Assembly: GCA_022825895.1 (NCBI GenBank)
Contig: JAJDVX010000015.1
Location: forward strand, 45,121 to 109,120
Direction: 5' to 3'
Length of the DNA: 64,000 bases
From: Chloroflexota bacterium
Lineage (GTDB): Bacteria > Chloroflexota > UBA11872
Positions 16,933 through 45,401 of the stretch are shown one piece after another. The translations under genes and the position numbers were made by a program. Below the pieces are notes generated by a model. That model saw only the letters and a program-made list of their open reading frames with translations, searched no databases and was not told where the DNA came from. Every line of letters begins with the position of its first letter. Position 1 is the stretch's first letter.

Positions 16933-18290
16933 CCGTCCCGGCGCGCGACCCCGTGCCCGCGGACGCGCTGCTGACCGACCTGTATCAACTGAGCATGATG
17001 CAGGCGTACTGGGAACACGGGCTGACGGAGACGGCGACCTTTGACCTGATCTGCCGCCGGCTGCCGCCGAACCGGAATCTGCTGATCGCCTGCGGGCTGG
17101 AAGCGGCGCTGGAATACCTGGAAGGCGTGGCGGTCACGGCGGCGGATCTGGAGTACCTGGCCTCGCTCAATCGATTCTCGATGGACTTCCTGAACCGGCT
17201 GGAGTGGCTCAGGTTCCAGGGAGAGGTGCGCGCCGTGCCGGAAGGGACGCCGGTGTTTGGCAACGAGCCGATCCTGGAAGTAACAGCATCGCTACCCGAA
17301 GCCCAGATCGTGGAGACCTATCTGCTCAGCACGATCCATCACCAGACGATGGCCGCGTCGGCCGCGTACCGGCTGGCGGCAGCCGCCGAGGGAATCCCGG
17401 TGGTGGACTTTGGCACGCGACACGCGCAAGGGGCCGCAGCCGGCGTGGACACGGCGCGCGCGGCCTATGTCGCGGGCGTGGCCGGCACCTCGAACGTGGC
17501 GGCCGGGCGGCGGTTCGGCGTGCCCGTCAGCGGCACGATGGCGCATAGCTACATCCAGGCGCACGAGCGCGAGTCGGACGCGCTGGCTTCATTTGCGGCC
17601 ACACACCACGGGACCACACTGCTGGTGGACACCTACGACATTCGCCGAGGGGTGGGTCTAGTCATCGACCTGGCGGAGCGACAGGGCGACGAATTTGACG
17701 TGGCGGCTATTCGGATCGACTCAGGCGACCTGGGGGCCAATGCGCGCATGGCGCGGGAGATGCTGGATATGTCGGGCCTGACCGCGGTTCGCATTATCGT
17801 CAGCGGCGATCTGGACGCAGAGAGAATCGCGGCGTTGGCCGAATCCGGTGCGCCGATCGACGGGTATGGCGTGGGCACGGCGCTGGCCGTGTCCACGGAC
17901 GCGCCTTACCTGGATACCGCCTACAAGCTGGCCGCGTATGCGGGGCAGGGTCGAATGAAGCTGGCCGCCTCGAAGCGCACGTGGCCTGGGCGCAAGCAGG
18001 TGTTCCGTCAGATCGACGCCGGCGCTGCCGTGCGGGACGTGCTGGGAACGGTGGATGAAGCGATGGATGGTCGCCCCCTACTCGAAACCGTCATGTCGAA
18101 TGGGCGGCGGGTCGAAGAGACAGGTCGGCCTCTGGAGGCCATTCGCCGGCACGCTGCCGACTCGCTGGCGGAACTGCCGCAATTCGTTCGCGGCCTGGAT
18201 CCCGCCGAGCCTCCGTATCCCGTTATCGTGAGCGACAAGCTTGAACGCGCGGCACGCGAACTCGCGAGCCGACTTCGGGCGGAGGCTTAG
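16929..18290 (+). CDS. pncB: nicotinate phosphoribosyltransferase
   Basis: 453 aa; LTDLYQLSMMQAYWEHG N-terminus and NAPRTase core. Coupled to pncA. Confidence 0.85.
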   Translation: MTVPARDPVPADALLTDLYQLSMMQAYWEHGLTETATFDLICRRLPPNRNLLIACGLEAALEYLEGVAVTAADLEYLASLNRFSMDFLNRLEWLRFQGEVRAVPEGTPVFGNEPILEVTASLPEAQIVETYLLSTIHHQTMAASAAYRLAAAAEGIPVVDFGTRHAQGAAAGVDTARAAYVAGVAGTSNVAAGRRFGVPVSGTMAHSYIQAHERESDALASFAATHHGTTLLVDTYDIRRGVGLVIDLAERQGDEFDVAAIRIDSGDLGANARMAREMLDMSGLTAVRIIVSGDLDAERIAALAESGAPIDGYGVGTALAVSTDAPYLDTAYKLAAYAGQGRMKLAASKRTWPGRKQVFRQIDAGAAVRDVLGTVDEAMDGRPLLETVMSNGRRVEETGRPLEAIRRHAADSLAELPQFVRGLDPAEPPYPVIVSDKLERAARELASRLRAEA

Positions 18291-18811
18291 GCTCCGGCGT
18301 CGCCTTCCTCTGCGGCACCCGGCTGCCGGGCGGCCAGTTCGCGGTCGAGAATCAGCAGGCCGGCGCCATCGTTTCCGGCGATGCGCAGCTGGCTCAGCAG
18401 GGTGCGGAGCGTGTCCTCTTCCTCAGTCTGTTCGTTCACGAACCAGTCCACCAGCGACTTGGCCTGGTAGTCACCGAGTTCGACGGCCTGGGCATACAGG
18501 GCGTTGACCGAGCGCGTCGTGCCCTGTTCCAGGGTCAGCGCCGCGGCGACGACCGACTGTGGATCGCTGTATTCAGTATCGGCCTCGTCCAGTCCGCCCA
18601 GGGTAATCGGTGTGTCGCGGGCCGCCAGGTGATCGTAAATCCGCATGCCGTGGGCCCATTCCTCTTCGCTTTGGGCGCGCATCCAGGCGGCGAAACCCTC
18701 CAAATCCAACGACTCGAAGTAGGCGGCCATGCCCAGATAGACATAGGCCGCGCTGAACTCGTGGTTGATCTGGTCGTTGAGCGCCCTGGCCAGACTTCCA
18801 TCCATGGTCAT
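18287..18811 (-). CDS. ferritin-like iron storage protein (Ftn/bacterial ferritin family)
   Basis: Start re-picked to ATG at 18809-18811 with GGAGGAGG RBS. LNDQINHEFSAAYVYLGMAAYF, EEWAHGMRIYDHL ferroxidase-centre motifs. Confidence 0.8.
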   Translation of the reverse strand: MTMDGSLARALNDQINHEFSAAYVYLGMAAYFESLDLEGFAAWMRAQSEEEWAHGMRIYDHLAARDTPITLGGLDEADTEYSDPQSVVAAALTLEQGTTRSVNALYAQAVELGDYQAKSLVDWFVNEQTEEEDTLRTLLSQLRIAGNDGAGLLILDRELAARQPGAAEEGDAGA

Positions 18812-18903
18812 CGCCGCCTCCTCCGTCTTGCTCTCGATCAAGCCTAGCGCCGCGGGCACTCAGGCTCTCATGGGTTCGACGACATCCGACCCCCGGCGCC
18901 CCG

Positions 18904-21363
18904 TCAACTTCTGGCAAAGCGTCGCAGCCGCAGCGAGTTGCCGACCACGGAAAGGTCGCTGAAGGCCATCGCGGCGGCGGCCAGCATCGGGCTGAGCTGC
19001 ACCCCCCACACCGGAAACAAGACGCCCGCGGCGACCGGAATCAGCGCCACGTTATAGGCGAAGGCCCAGAAGAGGTTCTGGCGGATCGTGCGCATGGTGG
19101 AGCGGCTGAGGCGGATAGCGGTCACCGCGTCGCGCAGATCGCCGCGCACAAGGGTGATGTCGCCGGCTTCCATGGCGATGTCGGTACCAGAACCCATGGC
19201 GATACCCAGGTCAGCCTGGGCCAGCGCGGGCGCGTCGTTGATGCCGTCGCCGACGACGGCCACGCGATGTCCGGCGGCCTGCAATTCCCGGACGATGGCC
19301 GCCTTGTCCCCGGGGCGCACTTCCGCCCGCACCTCGTCCACCCCGACCTGCCGAGCAATGGCCTGGGCTGGCGCGTTGTGGTCGCCGGTGACCATCAGCA
19401 CGCGCAGACCGAGCTGCCGCAATTGGGTAACGACTCCCCGAGCTTCCGGCCGCGGAACGTCGGCTAGCGCCATCAGGCCAGCCAGTTCACCGTCAATGGC
19501 GGCGTATATGGACGAACGGCCTTGCGCGGCCAACTCGGTACCGCGGTCCAGCGCGGCCTCAACCGACACGCCCGCGTCCGCCAGAAGATCCGCCGTACCC
19601 ACCACGACCTGACGGTTTTCGACCACGGCGCGAACGCCGCCACCGGTTACCGACGCGAACCGGTTGGCCGGCGAAAGCTCAATGCCGCGCTCGATCGCGC
19701 CATGCACGATCGCCTGACCGATGGGATGCTCGGAGTCGCGTTCAGCCGAGCCGACCAAGCGCAGGATTTCCGACTCGGGCTCGCCGTTGAGCGGAATGAC
19801 GTCCGTTATCGCGGGACGGCCGCCGGTGATGGTGCCGGTCTTGTCCAGCACCACGGTATCGATGCGCCCGGCCGTCTCCAGCGCTTCCCCGCTACGCACG
19901 AGGACGCCGAGTTCGGCGCCCTTGCCGACGCCAACCATGATGGCCGTGGGCGTGGCAATGCCCAGCGCACAGGGACAGGCAATGATCAGCACCGTGACCA
20001 TGGCAACCAAAGCGTGGGGAAGCCGCGGGTCGGGACCGACTGCCAGCCACACGCCGAGTGTCAGAAGGCTAGTCACGATCACGGCCGGCACAAAGCGGGC
20101 CGCCACCCAGTCGGCCAGCCGCTGCACCGGCGCCTTGGACGTCTGGGCCCGTTCAACCAGGGCGATGATCTGCGCCAGCATCGAGTCCTGGCCGAGGCGG
20201 GTGGGGCGAACGCGCAGGCTGCCCGTTGTGTTGAGCGTGGCGCCGATCACCTCGTCGCCCGGCCCCTTATCCACCGGAATGCTCTCGCCGGTGATCATCG
20301 ATTCGTCCAGAGCGGAGGCACCCTCGAGCACCCGGCCGTCCACGGGAACCTTCTCGCCGGGGCGCACCACGACCACGTCGTCATTTCGTACGTCGTCCAA
20401 CGCGACTTCGAGGATCTGCCCGTCCCGCTCGACGCGAGCCGTCCTGGCCCGGAGGTCCAACAGCCGCTGGATAGCCGCGGAGACTCGAGCCCGGGCGCCC
20501 ATCTCGAAATAGCGGCCAAGCAGAACCAGTCCGATGATGACGGCCGAGGCCTCGTAGTAGTGGACGTCGGCCCCGGCCACTCCGCTCAGCAGCCCCGGCC
20601 ACACCGTGACAATCAGGCTGTAGCCGTACGCGGCGCTGGTTCCCAGGGCAATGAGCGTGTTCATGTCCGTGCTCGCGCGCCGCGCCGCCAGCCAGGCGCC
20701 GCGGTAGAACGACCAGCCGGACCAGAATTGAACTGGCGTGACGAGGACGAGCACTACCCATGGGTTGCCCAGGATCTCGGGCGCCCACGGGATGAACTCC
20801 ATCGCTCCCCACATCGCCAGTGCCCCAACGCCGAGCGCGAAGGCGGCCTGAATCCCCAGCCAGCGACGTTCGCGGCGGCGACGCTCCTCCAGCCCTCCGT
20901 CGGCGGCGGCCGCGCCAGTGGAGGAATCGTTGGGCGCGTCGGATTCGAGCACGTCGAAGCCGACACGCTCCACGGCCGTCCGCAGCACGCCATGCTCGGC
21001 CTGGCCCAGCGCGTGACGTACGAGGGCCTGGCCGGAAGCCAGGTTCACGGATGCGTCAAGCACGCCAGGAACTCCCACAAGGGCGTTCTCCACCTGGCCC
21101 ACGCACGATGCGCAGTGCATGCCCTCGACCTGGAGCGTGCGCTCGGCGGTGGGCACCTCGTAGCCCTCCGCCTGAACGGCGGCGGCGACATCGGCCGCGC
21201 TGAGGTCTCGATCGGCGCGCACGGCGAGCGTTTCGTCCGCCAGATTGACCGACGCCTCAACGACACCAGGCACTTGCCCGACCACCTGCTCGATCCGACC
21301 GACGCAGGCGACGCAGTGCATTCCCGCGACGGGAAGGGTGAACGACTGCTCCGCGTCGGTCAT
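18904..21363 (-). CDS. copA: copper-translocating P1B-type ATPase with two N-terminal HMA domains
   Basis: Two [12 protein letters not shown] / [12 protein letters not shown] metal-binding domains, TM CPC ([12 protein letters not shown]), [13 protein letters not shown]. 819 aa. Confidence 0.9.
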
Positions 21364-21734
21364 GACGTCTCACCGTTTCCTCGCGCGTGCGACGAACCTT
21401 CCCGCACGCTCAATGTGGCGGCCACTCGCTCGATGGCCACGCCGGCCGAAGCCACCCGGCGCAGGTGACCCGTCCCCTTGAACACGTCCATGAGTTCCGC
21501 GATCACCCGCTCGCGCTCGGCCGGATCGTCCGAGGCGATGGCGGTGGTAACACAGGTTCTGAGGTGGCGTTCCAGGACTCCGGCGTTGACTTTCTCGATT
21601 GCGCCCTGGATGGCCAGGGTCTGCTTGAGCACGTCCACGCAGTAGGCATCATCTTCGAGCATCTTCTCGACCGCCCGGGCGTGGCCCTGGATCGACTTCC
21701 AGCGGTTGAGGAGGTTCTGAGTTTCCCGATCCAT
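21360..21734 (-). CDS. csoR: CsoR/RcnR family copper-sensing transcriptional repressor
   Basis: [19 protein letters not shown] core (Cys/His metal ligands). Stop TGA overlaps copA ATG, so csoR-copA form an operon. Confidence 0.85.
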
Positions 21735-33160: not shown

Positions 33161-34141
33161 TTGCGCACGCTGCGAATACTCGCCGTCCTCGCCGCAGTGG
33201 CCGTCTCCGTTGTCGTGACAGCATGCGAAGACACGTCTGTGCAGACGGACACGGACGCGAAACACCGCGTGGCGCCAGTCTCCCGCGAGGGCGGAAGGCC
33301 GTTACGGGTCGTCGCGACCACCGGGCAGATTACCGACGCGGTACGCCATGTCGGCGGAGACCGAGTTGAAGTCCATGGCCTGATGGGACCAGGCGTGGAC
33401 CCGCATCTTTACCGCGCCAGCGAACGCGATATTACTCGGCTCGAAGCAGCAGACGCCGTGTTTTGGAATGGCCTGCACCTGGAGGCCGGGATTTCTGGAG
33501 TCCTCGAACGGCTCGCCGAACTCGGGGTCCATTCAATTCGGGTGACCGATGACATTGACCGGCAACTCTTGCTGGCGCCGCCGGAATTCAATGGCGCTTA
33601 CGATCCCCACGTTTGGTTCGACTTGGATCTCTGGTCGATAACCGTCGGGACCATTCGCGACGCCCTTATCGCGATGGATCCTGAAGGCACGGCGTCCTAC
33701 CGAGCCAACGCCGACGCCTTCATTTCCCAAGTCAGAGATCTCGACTCTTATGTCAAGTCGCGAGCTATGGAGATTGACGAGCGGGTGCGGGTCTTGGTGA
33801 CCGCGCACGACGCCTTCAACTACTTTGCGAACCGCTACGGGATGGAAGTGCGCGGCCTGCAGGGCATCAGTACGGAAAGCGAGGCCAGCACGGCCGACGT
33901 ACAACAACTCGCGCAGTTCATCAGCGAACGCGGGATCCCGGCGGTCTTCATTGAGTCGTCGGTCCCCGATCAAGCCGTCCAGGCCGTGATCGAAGCTGCG
34001 GCCGCTCGTGGGCACACCGTGATTATTGGCGGCGAGATTTTCTCCGACGCCATGGGCGCTCAAGGTACGGCGGAGGGAACCTACCTTGGCATGATCCGCC
34101 ATAACATCGACACCATTGTCGAAGCCTTGGCGCAGCCGTGA
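33161..34141 (+). CDS. metal ABC transporter substrate-binding lipoprotein (ZnuA/MntC/TroA cluster A-I)
   Basis: TTG start with AGGAAGAG RBS. Signal + lipobox VVVTAC. TroA-like fold. Confidence 0.85.
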
Positions 34142-34923
34142 GGATCGGCCTCCGCACCGGCGGGGCACTCGCGATCCAGGCGACCGACCTGACGCTGGCT
34201 TATCAGCAGCAACCGGTCCTCTGGGATGTCGATCTGGAAGTTCCGCAGGGCGTACTGATGGCGATTGTGGGTCCCAACGGTGCGGGCAAGACCACCCTGC
34301 TGCGAGCGGTGTTGGGCCTCCTGAAGCCCGCCGCCGGCGAAGTGCTGGTCTTCGGACAGCCCTACGCGGATCAGCGGCGGCGCGTGGCCTACGTTCCCCA
34401 GCGCGGCAGCGTCGACTGGGACTTCCCAACCACGGCGCTCGACATCGTCACCATGGGAACGTACGGGGGGTTGGGCTGGGTGCGTCGTCCAGGCACATCC
34501 GAGCGCACTCGAGCCGCCGCCGCGCTAGCTCAGGTCGGCATGGAGTCCTATGCCGACCGCCAGATCAGCCAACTCTCGGGTGGGCAACAGCAGCGGATCT
34601 TTCTGGCTCGGGCGCTTGTGCAGGACGCCGACGTCTACCTGATGGACGAGCCGTTCCAGGGGGTCGACGCCACCACCGAACGCGCGATTGTTGAGCTGCT
34701 GCGAGCGCTGCGGGCCGACGGCAAGACCGTAGTCGCGGTACACCATGACCTCCAGACCGTAACCGAGTACTTCGACGAAGTAACGCTCCTAAACGTCCGG
34801 CGCATCGCCGGCGGACCAGTAGATCGAGTGTTTACCGAGGAAAATCTGCGCCTTACATATGGCGGTCGCGTGGCCGGCATCGGTGGACGCGCCGTCGGCA
34901 ACGACCTTGAGCCATCCTCGTGA
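34138..34923 (+). CDS. metal ABC transporter ATP-binding protein
   Basis: GTG start overlapping upstream stop. Walker [11 protein letters not shown], signature LSGGQQQR, Walker B VYLMDEP. Confidence 0.85.
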
Positions 34924-34956
34924 TTCGCACCCGTAGCCCCGCCTAGAAACGAAGCA

Positions 34957-36093
34957 GTGATAGACGTCCTGAGCGGTCTCTTCGTGGACCATACGCTGCG
35001 CACGGTCGCGCTTGGCTCGGCCACGCTGGGAATCGTCAGCGGTGCCCTTGGAGCCTTCGCCGTGCTCCGCCGACAAGCTCTTCTGGGCGATGCCATGTCC
35101 CACGCGGCGTTGCCCGGAGTGGCCCTGGCGTTTCTGCTTACCGGCAGCCGTGCGCCGCTGGTGCTAATGCTCGGCGCGGCCATTGCCGGTTGGCTGGCAG
35201 CCGCGGCCATTGTCGGAGTCGTGCGCACGTCCCGCGTCAAGGTAGACAGCGCCATGGCCTTAACGCTAAGCGTCTTCTTTGGTGCCGGGCTGGTTGTATT
35301 GACTTTCATCCAGCGTCAGCCCGCCGCTGGCAAGGCCGGGCTGGACAAGTTTCTCTTCGGACAGGCGGCCGCCATGCTTGAAAGCGACGTCATCACCATG
35401 GTGGCCGTGGGCGCTGTCGGACTCTTCGGCCTGCTGGCGCTCTGGAAGGAATTCAAGCTCCTGAGCTTCGACCCCGACTTTGCGGCAACCCTCGGCATGC
35501 CCACGCGCCGGGTGGACATTCTCCTGACCAGCCTCCTTGTGATCGCCATCGTTGTCGGACTCAAGACGGTTGGAGTGGTTCTCATGAGCGCCATGGTGGT
35601 GGCGCCCGGTGCGGCCGCCCGGCAGTGGACGAATCGTCTGGGTGTCATGGTCACCCTCTCGGCGTGTTTTGGAGCTGCCGCAGGTGTGCTGGGAGCACTG
35701 CTTAGCACCACGGCAGAGACGTCCACAGGTCCTACCATCGTGCTTGTTGCGACCGGGCTGGTGGTTGTGTCGCTCTTGTTTGCGCCCGCGCGAGGCTTGG
35801 TGTGGGTACGCATGCGCGCCTGGCGGAGCCGGCGGATGCTGGCCTTGGAAGCTGTCATCGCCGACCTGGCGTCGCTGGCGGCGCAGCACGGATCCAACGC
35901 GACGCATCCACATGACATCGGGGCCCTGAACGCAGTTCGCGGCCGCGCCGTCGTCGAACGCGCCTTGACCGAATTGGCTGCGGACGGGCTGGCTCGGCAG
36001 CACGACACCGGCGGCTGGTCGCTGACGCCCCGCGGACTGGCCGAAGCCGACCGTTTGGCCCGAAGCCGACGCGCGCCAGGAGTTGCCCGTTGA
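34957..36093 (+). CDS. metal ABC transporter permease (ABC-3 family) with C-terminal ~90-aa winged-helix-like extension
   Basis: GTG start. ~280 aa ABC-3 permease core, then ALEAVIADLASLAAQHG...ERALTELAADGLARQHDTGGWSLTPRGLAEADRL. Confidence 0.8.
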   Translation: MIDVLSGLFVDHTLRTVALGSATLGIVSGALGAFAVLRRQALLGDAMSHAALPGVALAFLLTGSRAPLVLMLGAAIAGWLAAAAIVGVVRTSRVKVDSAMALTLSVFFGAGLVVLTFIQRQPAAGKAGLDKFLFGQAAAMLESDVITMVAVGAVGLFGLLALWKEFKLLSFDPDFAATLGMPTRRVDILLTSLLVIAIVVGLKTVGVVLMSAMVVAPGAAARQWTNRLGVMVTLSACFGAAAGVLGALLSTTAETSTGPTIVLVATGLVVVSLLFAPARGLVWVRMRAWRSRRMLALEAVIADLASLAAQHGSNATHPHDIGALNAVRGRAVVERALTELAADGLARQHDTGGWSLTPRGLAEADRLARSRRAPGVAR

Positions 36094-37199
36094 CCTCGGC
36101 CCAGATCGACGTCCTCCTCGTCGCCGTCGTGGTCGCCGCCGCTTGTGCGATACCGGGAACGTTTCTGGTCTTGCGCCGCATGGCCATGATGAGCGACGCC
36201 ATCAGCCACACCGTTCTTCTTGGCATCGTATTGGCGTTCTTCGTCGTCGCTGACCTCGGCTCCCCGATTCTCATTGTGGGCGCTGCTCTGGTTGGCTTGC
36301 TCACCGTCGTTCTGGTCGAAGCCACCAGTCGCACTGGCCTGGTGCGCGAGGACACGGCAATCGGCCTGGTGTTCCCAGCCCTTTTCTCTATTGCCGTGAT
36401 CTTGATATCCAGCCTGGCAGGTGATGTGCACCTGGACAGCGATGCGGTATTGCTCGGCGAGATTGCCTTCGCGCCCTTCAACCGCTTCGCACCCTTTGGC
36501 GTCGATCTGGGACCGGTCGCAATCTGGGTCATGGGCGCCATCCTGCTCATCAACCTTGCATGTACAGCTTTGTTCTTCAAGGAATTGAAGCTGGCTACGT
36601 TTGATCCGGCCCTTGCCGCGGCGCTTGGATTCTCGCCGGCACTCGTCCATTACGGGCTTATGGCGCTAGTCTCGATCACCGCCGTTGGCGCCTTTGATGC
36701 CGTGGGGTCGATCCTGGTCGTGGCGCTCATGGTCGGTCCCCCCGCCGCTGCCTACCTGCTCACCGACCACCTGCCTCGAATGTTGGGACTTAGCGTCCTT
36801 ATCGGCGCGACGTCAGCCGCCGGCGGCTATTGGCTTGCGAGGCTGCTCGACGCCAACATCGCCGGCGCGATGGCCACGGCGGTCGGCATCGCCTTCACAC
36901 TTGTCCTACTGCTCGCGCCACGGCGCGGATTGGTCGCCGCGGCCCGGCGGCGGCGCCGTCAGCGATGGACGTTCGCCCGTCAGATGCTGCTCATTCACCT
37001 CGCCACGCACGAGGGCACGCCGACTGAATCCGACGAGAGCCACCCCGACCACATGCAGCGCCACATGCGCTGGCCCGCCGACTTTTCCGCCCGCGTGATT
37101 CAGACCGCCACCGATCGCGGCCTCGTCGTGCTCGAAGCCGAGCAACTTCGCCTCACCCCCCACGGGCGCGAAGCCGCCAAAGAAGCTGCGGTCCGTTAG
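36090..37199 (+). CDS. metal ABC transporter permease (ABC-3 family) with C-terminal winged-helix-like extension
   Basis: TTG start overlapping upstream stop. Second permease paralog with tail ...ARVIQTATDRGLVVLEAEQLRLTPHGREAAKEA. Confidence 0.8.
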   Translation: MTSAQIDVLLVAVVVAAACAIPGTFLVLRRMAMMSDAISHTVLLGIVLAFFVVADLGSPILIVGAALVGLLTVVLVEATSRTGLVREDTAIGLVFPALFSIAVILISSLAGDVHLDSDAVLLGEIAFAPFNRFAPFGVDLGPVAIWVMGAILLINLACTALFFKELKLATFDPALAAALGFSPALVHYGLMALVSITAVGAFDAVGSILVVALMVGPPAAAYLLTDHLPRMLGLSVLIGATSAAGGYWLARLLDANIAGAMATAVGIAFTLVLLLAPRRGLVAAARRRRRQRWTFARQMLLIHLATHEGTPTESDESHPDHMQRHMRWPADFSARVIQTATDRGLVVLEAEQLRLTPHGREAAKEAAVR

Positions 37200-37226: not shown

Positions 37227-37895
37227 TCATGCCTCATGGGTGAAGACGCTGTCGCTGACCGTCTGGCTCAATGCCACCTCGGCGTCCCCAATCCGCACCA
37301 CCAGCGGCCCGTCGAAGGGTAATCGTCGAACCACACGGGCCCGCGTGCCCGGCACAAGCCGGATCTCCGTCAGGTACTCCAGCACGGCCCGGTCGCGGTC
37401 GCGTACTCGCGCCACCACGAAATCCGTGCCATCGGCAACCCCCGTCAACTGGCGCGCATCGTCGGCTTGTAGCGCGTCCAGCGCCTCATTGGGGATCGAG
37501 TCCCCGTGCGGATCCGTTGTCGGGTCGGAGACCTTGGCGGCGATTCGCCGCTCCATCTCCTCGGAAATCACATGCTCCAGCCGGTCGGCCTCCTCGTGCA
37601 CGTCATTCCAGTCGTAATCCAGGAACTCCACCAGGAACCGTTCGATCAGCCGGTGATGGCGGACCATCTCCAGCGCGTGGCGCTCACCTTCCTCGGTCAG
37701 TTGTGCGCCCTGGTAGCGCCGGTAGTCGACCAACGCCTTCTGTCGCAGGCGTTGCAGCGCTACCGTCACCGCGCCCTGGGTCACGTCCAACTGGCTCGCC
37801 AGTTCCCCTGTCCCCACCCGCCGCTCGTGCCCGCCGGCGTCGTAGAGGGCGCGCAGATAGTCTTGGTCGCTGGCTGAAACGGGCGGGTCGGGCAT
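37227..37895 (-). CDS. DtxR/IdeR/MntR family metal-dependent transcriptional regulator with C-terminal FeoA/SH3-like domain
   Basis: N-terminal wHTH DYLRALYDAGGHERRVGTGELASQLDVTQGAVTVALQRL, metal-binding HHRLIERFL, C-terminal SH3-like domain. Confidence 0.85.
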   Translation of the reverse strand: MPDPPVSASDQDYLRALYDAGGHERRVGTGELASQLDVTQGAVTVALQRLRQKALVDYRRYQGAQLTEEGERHALEMVRHHRLIERFLVEFLDYDWNDVHEEADRLEHVISEEMERRIAAKVSDPTTDPHGDSIPNEALDALQADDARQLTGVADGTDFVVARVRDRDRAVLEYLTEIRLVPGTRARVVRRLPFDGPLVVRIGDAEVALSQTVSDSVFTHEA

Positions 37896-37967
37896 TCAAT
37901 CTTGGCGGCGAGTAGGGCCAGCAACCTAACAGGTTGGGCGCCGGCGCTGACTGGCTAGACTGCCAGC

Positions 37968-38942
37968 GTGCACAGTTTCGACCCCCCCGGGCAGCCCCGC
38001 GCGCCGCGCGCCCCTGCATTCTCACGACGAACCATCCTGGGCGCGCTGGGCCTGGCAACGCCGGCGCTCGCCGGATTGCTCCCCGCCTGCGGATCACCGC
38101 CACCCGATCCCAACATCAGCGTCTTCCTGACGGTCAACGAAATGCTGCCGGGTCCGCATCGCTTCCCCTTCGTGGTGGTTGACGGCGAACGCACGGCGGT
38201 CACCGGTGCGCGGATCCAAGTGCGCTTCCTGCGACTGGTGGGGGAACGCGACGAGTTTCGCTTCGAAGTCCCCGCCAGGGAATACGTCGCCGGCGGCAGC
38301 TACAACCACGTCCATGAAGACGGCCGGGTCCACGTCCACGACCTGGCCCGCTCCTACTACCTCGTCGACGACGCCAACTTCGACGAGGGCCTCTGGCGCG
38401 CCGACCTGGAGGTGCATCCGGCCAACGGCTCGGCCTTCTCCGCGTCTACGGTCTTCCAGGTCGGACAACGCACCGCCACTCCGAGGGTGGGAGACCCGGC
38501 GCCCGGCACCGTCCATGCCACGGTCGACGACGTCGCGGATCTCAACCTCCTGACCACCGCCGACCCACCCCTCTCGGCCCTCTACGGGCATACCGTTGCC
38601 GACGCGCTCGCCGCGAACGAGCCATTCCTTGTCGCCTTTAGCACCCCCGCCTTCTGTACGTCGGCGATGTGCGGACCGGTCACTGCCGTTGTGGGCGACT
38701 TGCACGGCCAGCTGGGCGACCGTGTGCGCTTCATCCACCTCGAGCCGTTCGATCTCAATATCGCGCGTACCGAGGGCCGCCTCGTTTGGGCAGACGTGGC
38801 GCGCGAGTGGAACCTCGAAACCGAACCCTGGGTCTTTGTCGTCGATCCTTCCGGGCGCGTAGCCGCGCGCTTCGAAGGCCTGGTCGGGGCCGCCGAACTT
38901 CGGCCCGCCATCGCCGCCGTGGCTGGACCGCCGCTGCGCTGA
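37968..38942 (+). CDS. Tat-secreted lipoprotein, hypothetical (C-terminal thioredoxin/Sco-like CxxxxC region)
   Basis: GTG start. Twin-arginine signal SRRTILGALGLATPALAGLLPAC (lipobox). C-terminal FLVAFSTPAFCTSAMCGP. Confidence 0.5.
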   Translation: MHSFDPPGQPRAPRAPAFSRRTILGALGLATPALAGLLPACGSPPPDPNISVFLTVNEMLPGPHRFPFVVVDGERTAVTGARIQVRFLRLVGERDEFRFEVPAREYVAGGSYNHVHEDGRVHVHDLARSYYLVDDANFDEGLWRADLEVHPANGSAFSASTVFQVGQRTATPRVGDPAPGTVHATVDDVADLNLLTTADPPLSALYGHTVADALAANEPFLVAFSTPAFCTSAMCGPVTAVVGDLHGQLGDRVRFIHLEPFDLNIARTEGRLVWADVAREWNLETEPWVFVVDPSGRVAARFEGLVGAAELRPAIAAVAGPPLR

Positions 38943-39421
38943 TGCGACGTCTCCTGCGGTTCCTGCCGGCACTGACTCTGCTGGCGGCCACGGCAACGCC
39001 CGTCCTGGCCCACGGCGGCGACCTCGTCTACACCGGCGCCACCGGTCCCTACCAGGTCCGCGCCTTCGCAAACTGGGCCGAAGGCTGGCTCGACTACTCC
39101 GTGGATCTCCGCAACGTCTCCACCGGTGCGCGCATCCCTGGCGCCGAAGTCAAGGTGACCGTCTTCGAGAATGGCGCCGAAATCGCCCAATACACCGCCT
39201 TCGAGTCCGGCGCCGTCTACGAGTTCGTCGAGCCGAGCCCCGAAGAAGTCCACTGGAATCTCGTACTGGACATCTCCGGCCCCCTCGGCCCCGCCAGACT
39301 CACCCACGCCCTTGACCTGGCGCCCACCAACTGGGTCCTGCCCAGCCTCCTGGTCGTCGGCGGCTTCTTCGCCGCCGTCGCCGCCCACACCTGGACCGCC
39401 CGCCGCCGCGCTCGCGCCTAG
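38942..39421 (+). CDS. hypothetical secreted protein with C-terminal TM anchor; mature N-terminus begins with His (CopC/YtkA-like?)
   Basis: In-frame ATG inside ORF 38669..39421, overlapping the upstream stop (TGATG). Signal MRRLLRFLPALTLLAATATPVLA|HGGD; TM anchor LPSLLVVGGFFAAVAAH. Confidence 0.45.
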   Translation: MRRLLRFLPALTLLAATATPVLAHGGDLVYTGATGPYQVRAFANWAEGWLDYSVDLRNVSTGARIPGAEVKVTVFENGAEIAQYTAFESGAVYEFVEPSPEEVHWNLVLDISGPLGPARLTHALDLAPTNWVLPSLLVVGGFFAAVAAHTWTARRRARA

Positions 39422-41694
39422 CTCCGCGCCGCCTCCGGCAACGTCTGGATGAAGTTGACGATGTGCCAGGTGTCCAGTTCGCCGTATCGCTCGCCGAACG
39501 CCGGCATCCCCGTTCCCTCGATCCCGTTGAACACAAACCCGAACAGCGCATCGTCCGGGTGCAGCGGCACGTGGATCACCAGGTCCAGCGGCGGCGGATC
39601 CAGCGTCGCCGCCAATGGACCGTCCCCGCGACCCGCCGGCCCATGACAGCTCACGCACTCGGCTTCATAAAGCTCCCTTCCGGCGCTGACCGAGACATCG
39701 TCCGGCGGTATCGGGTTCACCGCAGACACCGAGACGCCCTGCGGCGGTCCGATAATCAGCAGCCCTGCCCCCAGCAAGATGGCGGCAAAGCCCGCCCCGG
39801 TCCCCGCCTGCCGCACGCGCGTTGCCCATCCCTGGCGCGCCAGCGTCGCCAGCGCCAGCACAAAGCCCATCCCGGCCAGCGCCAACCCCCAGAACCGCAC
39901 CGCGACCGCCGCATCAACCTCCGCCACGCCAATCGCCGTCGGCGACCCGATGTTCAGCCGCACCGGAACTCTGGCGTCGAACGCCCCCGGCTGCCGCACG
40001 ATCGCCAGCACCTGCCACCGGCCCGCCAACGCAAAGGCATCCGTCTCCACCACGAATCTGCCGTCCTCGGTGCGAACCGGCCGCTCAACCGTCGTCCCCA
40101 GGTCGGTATCGAGATAGCGAAGCTGCAACTCCACATCCGCATCCCCGGCCCGTCCGCCGTCCGCCGTCACCACGTCAACTTCCAGCGTGTTCGGACCCGG
40201 CCGCCCCGGAACCACACGCACCCGCACTCTCGAATCGCCGCTGGCCCCCACGCCCTCCACCGCCAGCGGCACGTCCCCGCTGACCTGCCGCGCCGGCTCG
40301 CGCTCCGTCAGGAACCCGACAACCAGCAGCACACTCACGGCCAGCACGATCTCCGCGCCCACCAGCGTCCGCAGCGCCGTCTGCGCCCTCGGTCGCGCCA
40401 CACCCCCAGCCGCCAGCCTCGGCCGGGTCCACCCCAGGTTCGCGCCCCCCAGCGCCAGCAGCGGCGCCACCAGCGCCAGCTTGGCCACCAGCAAAACTCC
40501 GTACTCCGTGCTCCACAGCCGCGCCGGCTCGAGTACCTGTAACCACGCGCTATACGCCCCGGTCACCAGGATCAGGCCCACAGCCACTGTGGCAACCGCC
40601 GAGAAGCGCGCCGCAACCTCGGTGATCTCGGCGGCAACGGAGCCGTTGGGACGCGCCTGGCGCGACTCCCACGCCAGCAACAGCACTACCGGCAATCCGC
40701 CCACCCACGCCCCCACCGCCAGCAGGTGAATCAGGTCGGCCGCCAGCGCCGGCCCAACCTCGCGCAGCGCCGCGGCGTGACTGCCCAGCGAAATCGTCAC
40801 CGCCATCACCACGGCCGCCAGCGCCACCCCGCCGAATGCAACCACGCCCCGCCGCTCGTCCGGCGACGACGAACTGGCCTGGTCGGCCAGCACCAGCGCC
40901 ACCGCGAGCGCCGCGGTCCGCGATTTCCACAAAACACCCCACTGCCCCGCCCCAAACACATCCCCGAACCCCGCCAGCAGCGAGTCGCCGCCCAACACCA
41001 GGATCTGCGTCCCCAGCAGTCCAACTTGCCCCGCCAGGGCCAGCAGCCCTCCGCCCAGCAACAGCAGCGCCGTCCGCCGTTCCACGACCCGACGCCGCTC
41101 AGGCAGGGATCCCCGCCGTTGCATCAGCACCTGCAGCGGCCCGCCGAACAGCACCGCCACGCCCACGAACAGCAACCAGCGCGAAATCGCCGCCGCCGGG
41201 CTCGACTCGATCGAAGCCACCGCCACCACCACGTCCGCCGCCACCGGCTCGCCCACCCCGAACGCAAACGACCCGCGGATCACATGACCGTCAATCACCG
41301 AGAGCGTCCGCCACACCACCACGTACGTGCCGTCCGCCAGGTCACCCACAGGAACCAGCATGGCCGCGTCACTCGTTGGGTCCGCCTCCGTCGGCCCCGT
41401 GGTCACCGGCTGACCGTCGGCGTCCAGCACCTCCAGGTTGCTGTAATCCGGATCGATGGCCTCGCTGAACTCCGCGTACACCACCAGCGGCGCCGGATCC
41501 ACCGCCGTCCCCGGGCTCGGCGACGCCCGCACCAGGTTCGCGTGCGCCCCGGACGGCGCCGCCACCAGCGCCAGCGCCGTCAACGCGGCTAGAAACGCCA
41601 GGGCCAGGCGCCCGCGGCGGAGCCCAGGCCCCCGCCACGGGCCGGGTTCCCTACCCGGCGCCACGCCGACGGAACGCATAGAACGCAAGGCCAA
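39418..41694 (-). CDS. CopC-CopD fusion copper resistance/uptake protein with C-terminal mono-heme cytochrome c domain
   Basis: Signal, then CopC domain (HANLVRASPSPGTAV...GTYVVVWRTLSVIDGHVIRGSFAFGV), ~8 TM CopD domain, YtkA-like periplasmic domain, C-terminal CVSCHG (CxxCH) cytochrome c. Exact start uncertain (41694 or 41679). Confidence 0.8.
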   Translation of the reverse strand: MALRSMRSVGVAPGREPGPWRGPGLRRGRLALAFLAALTALALVAAPSGAHANLVRASPSPGTAVDPAPLVVYAEFSEAIDPDYSNLEVLDADGQPVTTGPTEADPTSDAAMLVPVGDLADGTYVVVWRTLSVIDGHVIRGSFAFGVGEPVAADVVVAVASIESSPAAAISRWLLFVGVAVLFGGPLQVLMQRRGSLPERRRVVERRTALLLLGGGLLALAGQVGLLGTQILVLGGDSLLAGFGDVFGAGQWGVLWKSRTAALAVALVLADQASSSSPDERRGVVAFGGVALAAVVMAVTISLGSHAAALREVGPALAADLIHLLAVGAWVGGLPVVLLLAWESRQARPNGSVAAEITEVAARFSAVATVAVGLILVTGAYSAWLQVLEPARLWSTEYGVLLVAKLALVAPLLALGGANLGWTRPRLAAGGVARPRAQTALRTLVGAEIVLAVSVLLVVGFLTEREPARQVSGDVPLAVEGVGASGDSRVRVRVVPGRPGPNTLEVDVVTADGGRAGDADVELQLRYLDTDLGTTVERPVRTEDGRFVVETDAFALAGRWQVLAIVRQPGAFDARVPVRLNIGSPTAIGVAEVDAAVAVRFWGLALAGMGFVLALATLARQGWATRVRQAGTGAGFAAILLGAGLLIIGPPQGVSVSAVNPIPPDDVSVSAGRELYEAECVSCHGPAGRGDGPLAATLDPPPLDLVIHVPLHPDDALFGFVFNGIEGTGMPAFGERYGELDTWHIVNFIQTLPEAARS

Positions 41695-43084
41695 CGCCAG
41701 TCACAAGTCCCAGTCCGCCAATCACCAGCCCGGCCACCGCAATCGTCAGGGCCGTCGCCGAAGCGTCCGACGCCTCCCGCGCCTGCTGCTGCGCCGCCGT
41801 GGCCACCCCCGCGATCTCGCGCGCGCTCGGCACCGGCCGCGGGAACTGCGCCACCGTGGCCGACCGCACGTCGTCGAACGTCCCGGGACCCGAAGTAAAT
41901 GTCTCGTCAACCGGCAGCCCGTCGATCGTGCCCACAAACCGGAACCGGTACGGCCCAGGCGCCGTCGGGATGAACGGCGCCACGTAGCCTCCGTCCTCGC
42001 CGCGCAGCGGCGTCAGCGCCATCTGCCGGGCGATGCCCGACGCCGACATGTCCGCCGCCAGGTGCGTCACCTCCACCACCAGGCTGTTCGCCAGGCCGTT
42101 GATGCCAACTTGCGCCTGCTGGCCGGCGTCCATCTGCATGCCGCCGGACCCACCGCCGTCCGGGATGTGAATCGTCTCTAACGCCTCGATTGTCTCGCCG
42201 CCATACGCGTACTCCTCGTGCATGTTGGTATTCAGCGTCACCCGCACTTCGTTCATGCCCGGCGCCAGCTTGCCCAGGTGCAGGTACGGACTGTAGATCC
42301 GCCCCAGCCGCACCCCATTCACGTAGAGGTGCGGATGCCCTTCGCCCGCCACGTTCGGAGCATTCACCTTCGCCGGGGCAAGCGTGAATCCCTGCGGCGT
42401 CACCTTCAGGTTCGCCCCGCCCAGCGGATCCGGCTCCAGGCTGATCGCGACTCTCATCCCGGCGGGCGCCTCCACGTGGCCAACCTCTTCCGGCGCCGGC
42501 GGCATCGCCGGAACGTTGATCGTGGTCGCCGCCTGCACCGGCTGCCCGTCCACCACGTATTCGCTGTGGCCATTCGTCTGCAGTGTCACCCGGATCTCAC
42601 GGTCCCCGGGTGCAACGCCCTTCAGGTGGAACCACTCGCCGTAGGCTCGGCCCACCTTCTCGCCGTCCACGTAAACGTGCGCGTGCCCCTCGCCGTGCAC
42701 GTCCGCCTGATTCACCCGCTCCGGCGCGAACACAAAGCCGGTGGGGATGATGTGCACGTTGATTCCATCGATCGGATCGACCTCCGCCGTCACCTCCACT
42801 GCCATCCCCGACGTCTCCACCGTTCCACCGTGCTCGTGACCGCCGTCCGCGGCCTGGCCCGAACCCTGGTGATCGTCGCCCGCCCGCGTCACCGACAGGT
42901 ACACCCCATTCGGCTGCCCCTCATACGCCGGCTCCACCAGGAACCCGACGTCAAAGGTGAAGCCATGAACCTCACGTCCCTCGTGCGCCCACACCACGCT
43001 CGCCGCAGCCACTAGCCCGACCGCGGCAAGCGCCAACGCCGGCAGGCTGTGCCTCAAGCGCGGCCGGCGATTCCAGACTCGCAT
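41651..43084 (-). CDS. secreted His-rich protein with internal tandem-duplicated ~90-aa domain and C-terminal TM anchor (putative copper-binding)
   Basis: Start re-picked to MRVWNRRPRL (ATG 43082-43084, GAGG RBS). Repeats DPIDGINVHIIPTGFVFAPERVNQADVHGEGHAHVYVDG... and DPLGGANLKVTPQGFTLAPAKVNAPNVAGEGHPHLYVNG... Confidence 0.55.
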   Translation of the reverse strand: MRVWNRRPRLRHSLPALALAAVGLVAAASVVWAHEGREVHGFTFDVGFLVEPAYEGQPNGVYLSVTRAGDDHQGSGQAADGGHEHGGTVETSGMAVEVTAEVDPIDGINVHIIPTGFVFAPERVNQADVHGEGHAHVYVDGEKVGRAYGEWFHLKGVAPGDREIRVTLQTNGHSEYVVDGQPVQAATTINVPAMPPAPEEVGHVEAPAGMRVAISLEPDPLGGANLKVTPQGFTLAPAKVNAPNVAGEGHPHLYVNGVRLGRIYSPYLHLGKLAPGMNEVRVTLNTNMHEEYAYGGETIEALETIHIPDGGGSGGMQMDAGQQAQVGINGLANSLVVEVTHLAADMSASGIARQMALTPLRGEDGGYVAPFIPTAPGPYRFRFVGTIDGLPVDETFTSGPGTFDDVRSATVAQFPRPVPSAREIAGVATAAQQQAREASDASATALTIAVAGLVIGGLGLVTGVGLAFYAFRRRGAG

Positions 43085-43185
43085 CAACAAACCTCGCAGT
43101 TTCGGCGCATCCCCGCACGACACTTCTCGTCCCTACGGGATTCGCCCATTTGGTCCGCGCACCTGCGTGCGCGGCTGGGAGCCAT

Positions 43186-43545
43186 CTACTGCAAGGCCAA
43201 CCTGGGCGGCGGCCGCGGCGTCCCAATAGTCATGCGGCATGCCCGCCCAACATCCAATCGAACACGCTCGAACAGGCACACGACCAGCACAACGGCCAGT
43301 AATGCCGGCATCACCCCCACCGGAAACGGCGACGACTGCTCCGGAAACTCACCCGTCGTGTCAGCCGCTCCTGCCCCATCCGCCTCCGGCAATGTCCACG
43401 GCAAGTGAATGTGATCGTGCCCCTCATGCCCGTGCGGCGTAACCACCCCAAGCATCGGCGCCGCACTCGTCACCAAAGACGGCGCCAGCAAGGCCGCCAC
43501 GGCCAGAACCAGCACGGCAGCCGCCACAACTCGCCTGAACCTCAT
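43186..43545 (-). CDS. small secreted/membrane-anchored His-rich protein
   Basis: Signal MRFRRVVAAAVLVLAVAALLA, then HGHEGHDHIHLP, C-terminal TM helix. Sits in the copper cluster. Confidence 0.4.
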   Translation of the reverse strand: MRFRRVVAAAVLVLAVAALLAPSLVTSAAPMLGVVTPHGHEGHDHIHLPWTLPEADGAGAADTTGEFPEQSSPFPVGVMPALLAVVLVVCLFERVRLDVGRACRMTIGTPRPPPRLALQ

Positions 43546-44590: not shown

Positions 44591-45253
44591 CTAGTAGTAG
44601 GCCCTCGTCTTATTCTTAAAGACATCAATCTGACTGAGCACGGCCGGACTAACCAGATCAAAGAATCCTGACTTTCCTCGCTCATACTTGCGAAATACTG
44701 CCCAGCATATGTAGTCGGCTACTTGAAGACCGTAGTGAGCACGGGAATCGTGATGCACGATGTGGTACCGCAGACGATTGGGAATTCTCCTGGACAGTGT
44801 GTGCCGCACCGACTTCTCGAGTGCTTCCCGCCGTCTCCGGTAAGGGACAGTATCGGTAATAACGATTACTTCTTTGGCCTCGGACTTCGACTCTCTCAAG
44901 ACTACGCGTCGGAGCAGGGAACCGAGCATCTCCGCGTAGAACCTCCCGTCAGGTGTCAGAGAAGGTTCGGTTTTGCGTTTCTCTACAATCAACGCATCAA
45001 TACTGAAGTGATCAAGGTGGGATCCGATGATGTCAAAGACCCTGCCACGAACATGTCGGTTGTCATGAGCGCAGTGGAAGTACTCGGTCGCTAGGCCATA
45101 CTCCAGGCAGTCGTACTTATACGCATCCAGCGCCTCATACATCCGAAACGGCCGCTCCATGCTCACGCTCGTCAGCACGAAATAGCGAGTCCCGCGCGCG
45201 CTGAAATCAAGGTTCCCCGACTCGTCCAGGAATATGTACACGCAGTCGCTCAC
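44591..45253 (-). CDS. DUF3800 family protein
   Basis: GTG start at 45251-45253 (ORF track extends to 45358). CVYIFLDESGN N-terminus and GLQVADYICWAV C-terminal motif typical of DUF3800. GC ~52%. Confidence 0.65.
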   Translation of the reverse strand: MSDCVYIFLDESGNLDFSARGTRYFVLTSVSMERPFRMYEALDAYKYDCLEYGLATEYFHCAHDNRHVRGRVFDIIGSHLDHFSIDALIVEKRKTEPSLTPDGRFYAEMLGSLLRRVVLRESKSEAKEVIVITDTVPYRRRREALEKSVRHTLSRRIPNRLRYHIVHHDSRAHYGLQVADYICWAVFRKYERGKSGFFDLVSPAVLSQIDVFKNKTRAYY

Positions 45254-45401
45254 CGGCGGCCCAGGCCCTTTCCTCGTAGTCGCCCCACTGGACAACACAT
45301 CCCGACGTTTCGCCGGAGCCCTGGGATTCCGCGCCACGCGCGCGGAGTCCCACGGCACCCTGCGTACCCGCCCGGCGGCTCAAGACCGCGATCCGCGTAT
45401 C

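Follow-up and report, generated by a model that had tools for sequence, protein, structure and literature searches.

Bacterial copper import is poorly understood, and its best-studied example is the YcnJ/YcnI system of Bacillus subtilis. Here we describe a cluster of five genes (p1 to p5, positions 37968-43545) in a 64,000-nucleotide stretch of the Chloroflexota contig JAJDVX010000015.1 (hereafter the window). The cluster centers on a fusion of CopC, CopD, and cytochrome c domains. In our judgment, with slightly better than even confidence, its products acquire and traffic copper outside the cytoplasm in a system of the YcnJ/YcnI type. In B. subtilis, the DUF1775 protein YcnI, which is tethered by a transmembrane helix at its C-terminus, uses the N-terminal His together with a Glu to bind Cu(II) (PMC8424229), and it exchanges Cu(II) with the CopC domain of YcnJ (PMC12362106). 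When copper is limiting, heme-copper oxidases depend for their function on the YcnJ sites in CopC and CopD; CuA assembly involves Sco together with the YtkA domain and CtaK, and no reductase is known for YcnJ (PMC13344008).

A CopC-CopD-cytochrome c fusion built like the importer YcnJ

A check of the window's open reading frames (ORFs) recovered p1 to p5 with the coordinates and motifs that a preliminary description of this DNA had assigned to five neighboring genes for exported or membrane-anchored proteins. That description had found no secure named family for any of them. Searches of Pfam and NCBIfam agree for p1, p2, p4, and p5, none of which gave a match above threshold, but p3 matches CopC, CopD, and cytochrome c, as its description as a CopCD-cytochrome c gene implies. 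The cluster had also been called periplasmic; its products do appear to be extracytoplasmic, but the word is loose because most of their parts are membrane-tethered ectodomains. Signal peptides were called by eye, from n-, h-, and c-region features and from the invariance of the post-cleavage residue in homologs.

The p3 gene (39418-41694, - strand; likely start ATG at 41679, from start context) encodes a CopC-CopD-YtkA-like-cytochrome c fusion with two additional transmembrane helices before the cytochrome. Its CopC domain (41254-41544, -), with a Cu(II)-type site of N-terminal His, Asp, and His, scores 67 bits against a Pfam cut-off of 23.3. The CopD membrane domain (40294-41193, -) scores 79 bits against 32.1; eight transmembrane helices can be read from its sequence, and the NCBIfam model copper_CopD aligns to residues 168-467. 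The YtkA-like extracytoplasmic domain (39940-40281, -) reaches 16.2 bits, below the cut-off of 25.9, and some homologs carry a precomputed PF13115 match. The c-type cytochrome domain (39421-39732, -), with the motif CVSCH and axial Met730, is above the Pfam threshold for Cytochrome_CBB3 (43 bits) and Cytochrom_C (34 bits). NCBIfam equivalog cut-offs are unmet by p3, both for copper_CopC (57.5 against 95 bits) and for copper_CopD (119.3 against 195).

The putative ligands are strictly kept across 59 p3 homologs. Invariant positions are H51 (directly after the predicted signal peptide, which ends in SGA), D135, and H137 in the CopC domain, H306, D320, and H323 in CopD, and C680-x-x-C683-H684 and M730 in the cytochrome. 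The hydrophobic segments predict a topology with CopC outside, eight transmembrane helices, the YtkA-like domain outside, two further helices with a basic loop between them, and finally the cytochrome, which we place outside because a c-type cytochrome requires an outward face. By these features, p3 has the predicted CopC-CopD-YtkA architecture of a YcnJ-type importer, with an extra C-terminal c-type cytochrome. In the literature we found nothing on CopCD-cytochrome c fusions.

p5, p4, and p3 form a conserved core

To compare gene neighborhoods, 85 loci were fetched and their six-frame ORFs searched iteratively with hidden Markov models. A CopC-CopD-cytochrome c gene lies directly downstream of the p4 homolog in 63 of 86 loci, and this adjacency extends to genomes in which p4 is just 36-45% identical. 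Loci without a downstream CopCD are essentially those in which the repeat pair alone matches, i.e. other architectures. Directly upstream of p4, motif-based inspection identified a p5-like gene in ~55 loci; its product combines GPxLDHHFAERxPxHxH with a transmembrane segment and ends in PPxRPP(R). In the window, p5 (43186-43545, -) encodes a small membrane protein of 119 amino acids with a transmembrane helix at the N-terminus, a cluster of His residues, and the motif PRPPPR at the C-terminus. The His cluster, PHGHEGHDHIHLP, which the preliminary description had already reported, occupies residues 37-49 (43399-43434, -) and is conserved in 16 close loci; these loci share the window's layout of all five genes.

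The other two genes recur less regularly. In six distant loci p5 and p4 are separated by a p2-like gene, a p1-like lipoprotein gene lies just upstream in others, and in further genomes a thioredoxin-fold lipoprotein of a different subfamily fills the cluster. The core that is conserved is therefore p5-p4-p3, to which p1 and p2 are added as accessories that recur. The earlier grouping of these genes around CopCD is thus borne out by their co-conservation, distant clusters included.

In locus L002 (9441-10025), and also in L029, L033, L037, and L038, a gene between the p4 homolog and CopCD encodes a lipoprotein redoxin (AhpC-TSA/Redoxin) with an in-frame TGA. The TGA (L002 9687-9689) falls within ...FYRG[FL]F-TGA-GVCR..., which would place U-x-x-C at the thioredoxin active site; beyond it, translation stays in frame and yields conserved sequence. 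At 16-17 nt past the TGA there is a 7-8 bp hairpin that shows compensatory changes. The gene probably encodes a selenocysteine redoxin with a selenocysteine insertion sequence (SECIS) element, and gene callers break it into two.

p4 pairs an N-terminal His and a membrane anchor with an unfamiliar core

p4 (41651-43084, -; 477 amino acids) is predicted to carry a signal peptide, a beta-sandwich core, two nested three-His immunoglobulin (Ig)-like domains, and a transmembrane anchor. Its start at 43084 is favored over an upstream GTG by the lengths and N-termini of its homologs. More than 246 homologs were found, all unnamed, the closest (up to 92% identity) in Chloroflexota metagenome-assembled genomes. 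A scan of one genome per species placed p4 relatives in 453 genomes, mostly Chloroflexota/Dehalococcoidia, with a few Actinomycetota matching in the repeats only.

In a family alignment of 63 p4 homologs (A1), H34, the residue right after the leader, is invariant (63/63) and is always preceded by a small residue that closes the hydrophobic leader. E51 is also invariant, E55 is nearly so, and E35 is conserved; no Trp equivalent to the conserved Trp of the YcnI site was identified in p4. These residues belong to the N-terminal segment of the core (residues 34-70; 42875-42985, -), where H34, E35, E51, P52, E55, and N59 are conserved and strands are modeled at 35-39, 42-48, and 59-68. In the C-terminal segment (residues 323-412; 41849-42118, -), the conserved positions are E338, H341, Y367, P373, T374, Y379, D404, and D405. 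The C-terminal anchor, followed by RRR, is predicted from sequence at residues 445-471 (41672-41752, -).

An AlphaFold2 (AF2) model of p4 (predicted local distance difference test, pLDDT, 81.6) is all-beta, with three strands in residues 35-68 and six in 325-397 flanking two confidently modeled sandwiches (~88-195 and 203-307); a long C-terminal helix (421-476) holds the anchor. The model suggests that a single core domain is made up of the first and last segments, with the repeat pair as an insertion between them. Foldseek comparison of the whole model with the PDB returned generic multi-Ig receptors only, and searches of PDB sequences with p2, p4, the repeat, and the core, by sequence or profile, gave nothing significant. 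As a relative of YcnI, CopC, the p4 repeats, or YtkA, the core was rejected on hhalign comparison.

The p4 repeats are a three-His domain related to DUF4399

Repeat 1 (residues 90-194; 42503-42817, -) contains GEGHAHVYVDG at 131-141, and within A1 its E132, H134, and H136 never vary, while 62/63 sequences have H173. Repeat 2 (residues 206-308; 42161-42469, -) contains GEGHPHLYVNG at 247-257; H250, H252, and H289 are kept in ~73-84%, and in one subgroup of A1 the equivalent His of this repeat is replaced by Tyr or Gln. Both repeats read G-E-G-H-x-H...N-x-H. With 47% identity over 101 amino acids (E=1e-36), they are therefore a real duplication rather than a chance resemblance, as the two tandem GEGH.H.YV.G domains of the preliminary description suggest. 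Modeled in isolation, repeat 1 forms a seven-strand Ig-like sandwich (AF2, pLDDT 95). Foldseek against the PDB gave only weak, generic matches to FN3, CARDB, PKD, and SoxZ (best E=2e-3, template modeling score, TM-score, 0.5-0.6), and a profile search of PDB sequences with the repeat found nothing; neither search, then, mapped the repeat to a well-known non-metal family.

The domain is widespread. When 1.84 billion cluster representatives were searched with the repeat profile, 2,272 proteins matched at E<=1e-3, and at the stricter E<=1e-10 there were still 1,617. Architectures and signatures were counted in the best 145 of these at least 2,272 proteins, of which 116 contain the domain exactly twice and 24 contain it four to ten times; a lipobox-like leader is present in 62 and a His-rich stretch outside the domains in 57. 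Across the 378 aligned domain instances from these 145 diverse proteins, G44 is almost invariant and conservation is 85-98% for H45, H47, and H84 and 93-95% for N82, with G-H-x-H...N-x-H retained in 94-98% of the multi-repeat instances. An invariant Arg (domain R57) marks the tandem-pair branch to which p4 belongs and is absent from the multi-repeat branch.

p4 has no Pfam match to DUF4399 (PF14347) at E<0.1. Nevertheless, the repeat is a divergent branch of this uncharacterized superfamily, because multi-repeat relatives found by the repeat profile (A2) at E 1e-95 to 1e-55 (P0139, P0140, P0163, and P0205) score 62-143 bits on PF14347, and pair-type relatives fall just below its cut-off (16-27 bits against 28). 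The multi-repeat proteins also match DUF6130. We found no function for DUF4399 in the literature, and no solved structure by sequence.

Several relatives join the domain to others: CopC (P0169, above threshold), a plastocyanin-like domain (P0163), Cupredoxin_1/COX2-like domains (P0205, and P0158 just below threshold), and YtkA (P0174, just below threshold). Taken together, the three-His signature, its distribution, and these fusion partners suggest that the domain holds a conserved metal site, for which copper would be the likeliest ligand. The preliminary description had proposed an undescribed metal-binding module. The almost invariant three-His signature fits such a role, which thus seems plausible, but the domain is not wholly undescribed, being a remote branch of DUF4399.

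Further uncharacterized architectures were seen among the repeat-domain proteins, in P0153, P0154, P0160, and P0162 and in about 27 of the 145. Numerous pair-type lipoproteins terminate in a conserved domain of ~90 amino acids (...ADIPGVFEVELE...L..L.V) with no Pfam match. Others have a cupredoxin-like start, a His-rich linker, and an end of the form ...VGYLEV.P.

Putative YtkA-like domains in p1 and p2

p1 (37968-38942, + strand; 324 amino acids) has a leader with a twin-arginine motif (SRRTILGAL) and a lipobox (LLPAC), indicating a lipoprotein exported by the twin-arginine translocation (Tat) pathway. Its N-terminal domain aligns with the YtkA-like domain of p3 by hhalign (88.5%, E=2.7e-6, 88 columns), a reference that is itself below the Pfam threshold. 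Distant p1 members have sub-threshold YtkA and Thioredoxin_2 matches that span the full domain length. The PF13115 cut-off of 25.9 bits was not reached: the best scores are 18.5 bits for p1 relatives and 15.2 for p2 relatives, both covering 4-83 of 85 positions. A His loop, YNHVHEDGRVHVHD (H114, H116, H122, and H124; 38301-38342, +), is present in the clade of the window and in the L065/L071 clade and deleted in the L034/L067/L081/L084 clade.

In the C-terminal half, C230-T-S-A-M-C235 (38655-38672, +) belongs to an invariant TPxxCxxxxCGP at the thioredoxin active-site position. A profile of this domain finds 3IA1, a Thermus thiol-disulfide isomerase (E=1.6e-4), and more weakly thioredoxins, with CxxxxC aligned to the WCxxC site. 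C62, C67, G68, P69, and H89 of alignment A4 (the last being H257) are invariant. No Pfam match to SCO1-SenC was found in p1, and its motif is CxxxxC, not CxxxC. p1 is accordingly best described as a predicted YtkA-like plus thioredoxin-fold lipoprotein of Sco- or TlpA-like design, outside the Sco family. The earlier reading of p1 as a Tat lipoprotein with a thioredoxin/Sco-like CxxxxC region holds for the signal, the lipobox, and the fold, but not for Sco membership, and it overlooked the YtkA-like N-terminal half. A BCP/PrxQ-type peroxiredoxin, considered from the CxxxxC spacing, is not supported, as there is no AhpC-TSA match and the profile aligns to thioredoxins.

p2 (38942-39421, +) begins at an ATG overlapping the p1 stop codon (TGATG). 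It encodes 159 amino acids comprising a signal peptide, a YtkA-like ectodomain, and, at the C-terminus, one transmembrane helix. Predicted cleavage between VLA and HGG leaves a mature N-terminal His, in agreement with the preliminary description. AHGG, GPY, YE, and W are invariant in the family, which also shows the C-terminal helix with a basic tail. A word search returned 17 close homologs. Similarity to YtkA is fainter here than in p1: distant p2 members have sub-threshold matches (E=0.03-0.06, 4-83 of 85 profile positions), and hhalign against the p3 YtkA-like domain gives 22% (E ~1e-3), again with a reference below the Pfam threshold. A mature N-terminal His is predicted to be exposed by p4, p2, and the p3 CopC domain, and both p4 and p2 have a transmembrane helix at the C-terminus as their tether.

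Candidate transcription signals

A gene for a DtxR/MntR-family metal-dependent repressor (37227-37895, -; Pfam Fe_dep_repress, Fe_dep_repr_C, and FeoA) is divergent from p1-p2 and is a candidate for their regulator. The 72-bp region between it and p1 contains the palindrome GCAACCTAACAGGTTGG (37920-37936), a candidate operator that is exact in 12 of the 16 close loci. Only two intergenic blocks are conserved among those loci, GCAACCTAACAGGTTGG and TGACTGGCTAGACTGCC, and the window holds no second copy of GCAACCTAACAGGTTGG. The palindrome seems to resemble DtxR-type half-sites (AGGTT/AACCT), in a different arrangement.

A conserved TAGACT precedes the p1 GTG by exactly 6 nt (37956-37970), and a conserved TAGTCT precedes the p5 ATG by exactly the same distance (43543-57), which suggests that both are -10 elements of leaderless transcripts, one for each transcription unit. 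Scans for consensus promoters, terminators, and inverted repeats stayed at chance level. In the short stretches that precede the p1 and p5 starts, we noted no Shine-Dalgarno sequence. p2 (+) and p3 (-) are convergent and both end on the palindromic CTAG at 39418-39421, as they do in the close loci; because the stop codons overlap, there is no room for a terminator and the transcripts must overlap. The p5-p4 gap (~43159-43178, -) contains an 8-bp GC-rich hairpin, CCGCGCAC-GCAG-GTGCGCGG, with no T-run, which could modulate the relative expression of p5 and p4.

Genes around the cluster

csoR (21360-21734) and a P1B-type copA (18904-21363) form a separate locus ~16 kb upstream of the cluster; the preliminary description had noted this separation, giving 17 kb. 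Directly downstream of copA, and oriented like csoR-copA, is a ferritin-like (Dps-type) gene (18287-18859). A Mn/Zn-type ATP-binding cassette (ABC) transporter (34138-37199), consisting of an ATPase and two ABC-3 permeases, each with a long C-terminal extension, directly precedes the DtxR-family repressor; no gene for a substrate-binding protein was noted alongside it. On the other side of the cluster, a DUF3800 gene (44591-45358) lies in a region of lower G+C (~0.63) and overlaps the start of an opposite-strand Fe-ADH-like gene.

Copper acquisition and its alternatives

In the mechanism we propose, p4, together with p5, would serve as a surface partner of the p3 CopC domain that captures and buffers Cu(II), and p4 would hand Cu(II) to this domain as YcnI does to YcnJ. 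CopD would form the conduit through which copper moves inward. The fused cytochrome c, facing outward, could supply the electron that converts Cu(II) into Cu(I) at the transporter or close to it, making it a possible cupric reductase. p2 and p1 may act like CtaK/Sco or TlpA, loading or preparing the copper sites of membrane cuproenzymes (e.g. heme-copper oxidases), including thiol preparation. p1-p2 would be transcribed convergently with p5-p4-p3, from a promoter with the conserved palindrome beside the metal-dependent repressor gene. Copper binding by p1, p2, p4, and p5 is something we infer from this context. Acquisition is favored because efflux is encoded separately by csoR-copA, and because of the domains and ligands of p3, the gene order, the invariant H34 and E51 and the membrane anchor of p4, the three-His signature, the metal-related fusions and His-rich stretches of the repeat-domain proteins, and the published work on YcnI.

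Several observations weigh against such a system. The p4 core has no Pfam match to DUF1775 (PF07987), 25 core-domain constructs likewise gave none at E<=10, and when the core profile was compared by hhalign with the sequence of YcnI (confirmed against PDB entry 7ME6), the probability was 0.2%. No cuproenzyme gene adjoins the cluster in any locus examined, and two Actinomycetota loci with pair-type proteins have no obvious copper context. Three-His(+Glu) chemistry would equally fit Zn, Ni, or Fe. Finally, the sole nearby regulator, beside a Mn/Zn-type ABC transporter, is of the DtxR/MntR family, which is known for Fe and Mn, not Cu.

The same genes could instead provide copper resistance or sequestration, with the extracytoplasmic His sites of p4, p5, p2, and p1 soaking up surplus copper at the cell surface and CopCD and the cytochrome detoxifying it, e.g. 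by redox conversion, as in plasmid cop/pco systems. The first descriptions of CopC and CopD came from resistance operons (PMC8689200), a link that counts against acquisition; automated source names include 'putative copper resistance protein D', and dense His sites suit buffering. However, no multicopper oxidase, CopB, or CopRS is encoded nearby, efflux has its own locus, CopCD alone leads to hypersensitivity or import (PMC8689200, PMC13344008), and the fused CopC-CopD-YtkA arrangement is that of the importer YcnJ, so that we regard a resistance role as unlikely. It is also quite unlikely, in our view, that the accessory proteins (the three-His domains and p1-p2) handle another metal (Zn, Mn, Ni, or Fe) and are only loosely tied to CopCD. 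p4 and p5 are tightly and specifically associated with CopC-CopD-cytochrome c across deep divergence, p1- and p2-like genes occur within those clusters in genomes without a DtxR neighbor, and the domain fusions are of copper type (CopC, cupredoxin, and YtkA), all of which argues against this reading. In its favor are the lack of copper specificity in three-His plus carboxylate sites, the palindrome-bearing intergenic region that p1-p2 share with the DtxR/MntR repressor next to the ABC-3 transporter, and pair-type relatives in other phyla that do not adjoin CopCD.

A very improbable reading, to our minds, is that the repeats are Ig-like spacers or carbohydrate/cell-wall modules, with the His residues structural and p4 a scaffold for p3. 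It would account for the exclusively generic sandwiches (FN3, CARDB, PKD, and CBM-associated) returned by Foldseek and for sub-threshold Pfam matches to PEGA, DUF2846, and CE2_N-type beta-sandwiches, but even the top structural matches are poor (E>=2e-3, TM-score ~0.5-0.6), and it would be unusual for a spacer to retain three His in 85-98% of 378 instances over varied architectures, or to be accompanied so often by His-rich tails.

Copper acquisition also admits a bolder extension, possible but in our opinion rather doubtful. The GHxH...NxH Ig-like domain, comprising the p4 repeat and the DUF4399 superfamily, might be an unrecognized, widespread extracytoplasmic copper-binding module, and the p3 cytochrome c an in-cis cupric reductase. 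If so, the fused cytochrome would link the respiratory chain to the conversion of Cu(II) to Cu(I) in uptake or cuproenzyme loading. The locus would be of greater interest if either the three-His domain proved a general copper module or the cytochrome a cupric reductase. The natural fusion of an importer to a cytochrome c makes the reductase question directly testable. For the DUF4399-like superfamily, with at least 2,272 cluster representatives, the copper context, the fusions, and the three-His signature offer a functional foothold.

Comparison with known systems

Of the systems compared, B. subtilis ycnKJI resembles this locus in both importer and partner. p3 matches YcnJ in the predicted order CopC-CopD-YtkA, in the site of N-terminal His, Asp, and His, and in the CopD His, and differs from it by two added transmembrane helices and the c-type cytochrome. 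Like YcnI, p4 is encoded beside the importer and has a mature N-terminal His, conserved Glu downstream, and a C-terminal transmembrane tether; unlike YcnI, its core is not detectably related to DUF1775, and two three-His Ig-like domains are nested within it. The locus lacks a YcnK-type regulator and has, in p5, an additional conserved small membrane protein with a His motif.

p1 resembles CtaK (YtkA) and Sco as a lipoprotein whose predicted YtkA-like domain is joined to a thioredoxin fold bearing two Cys and a conserved His, and p2 is predicted to be YtkA-like. In contrast to those proteins, however, p1 fuses both types, has CxxxxC rather than CxxxC, and is similar to YtkA only below threshold, and p2 has a C-terminal transmembrane anchor and a His start. 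The CopC-CopD systems of Pseudomonas and E. coli (cop/pco and YobA-YebZ-YebY) share the CopC and CopD families and the His-Asp-His Cu(II) site (PMC8689200), whereas p3 is fused, is extended by YtkA and cytochrome c, and has no CopA/CopB or YebY partner. DUF4399 (PF14347) and DUF6130 proteins of the p4-repeat type share G-H-x-H...N-x-H, and the p4 branch is set apart by its tandem pairs with an invariant Arg.

Copper clusters centered on CopCD are thus a known type. What is new here is the cytochrome c extension, the p5 family, the YtkA-thioredoxin fusion, and a YcnI-like partner, p4, of unrelated fold with two DUF4399-like three-His domains. This last suggests that a fold unrelated to that of YcnI can take on its role, having in common with it only the design of an N-terminal His and a C-terminal anchor.

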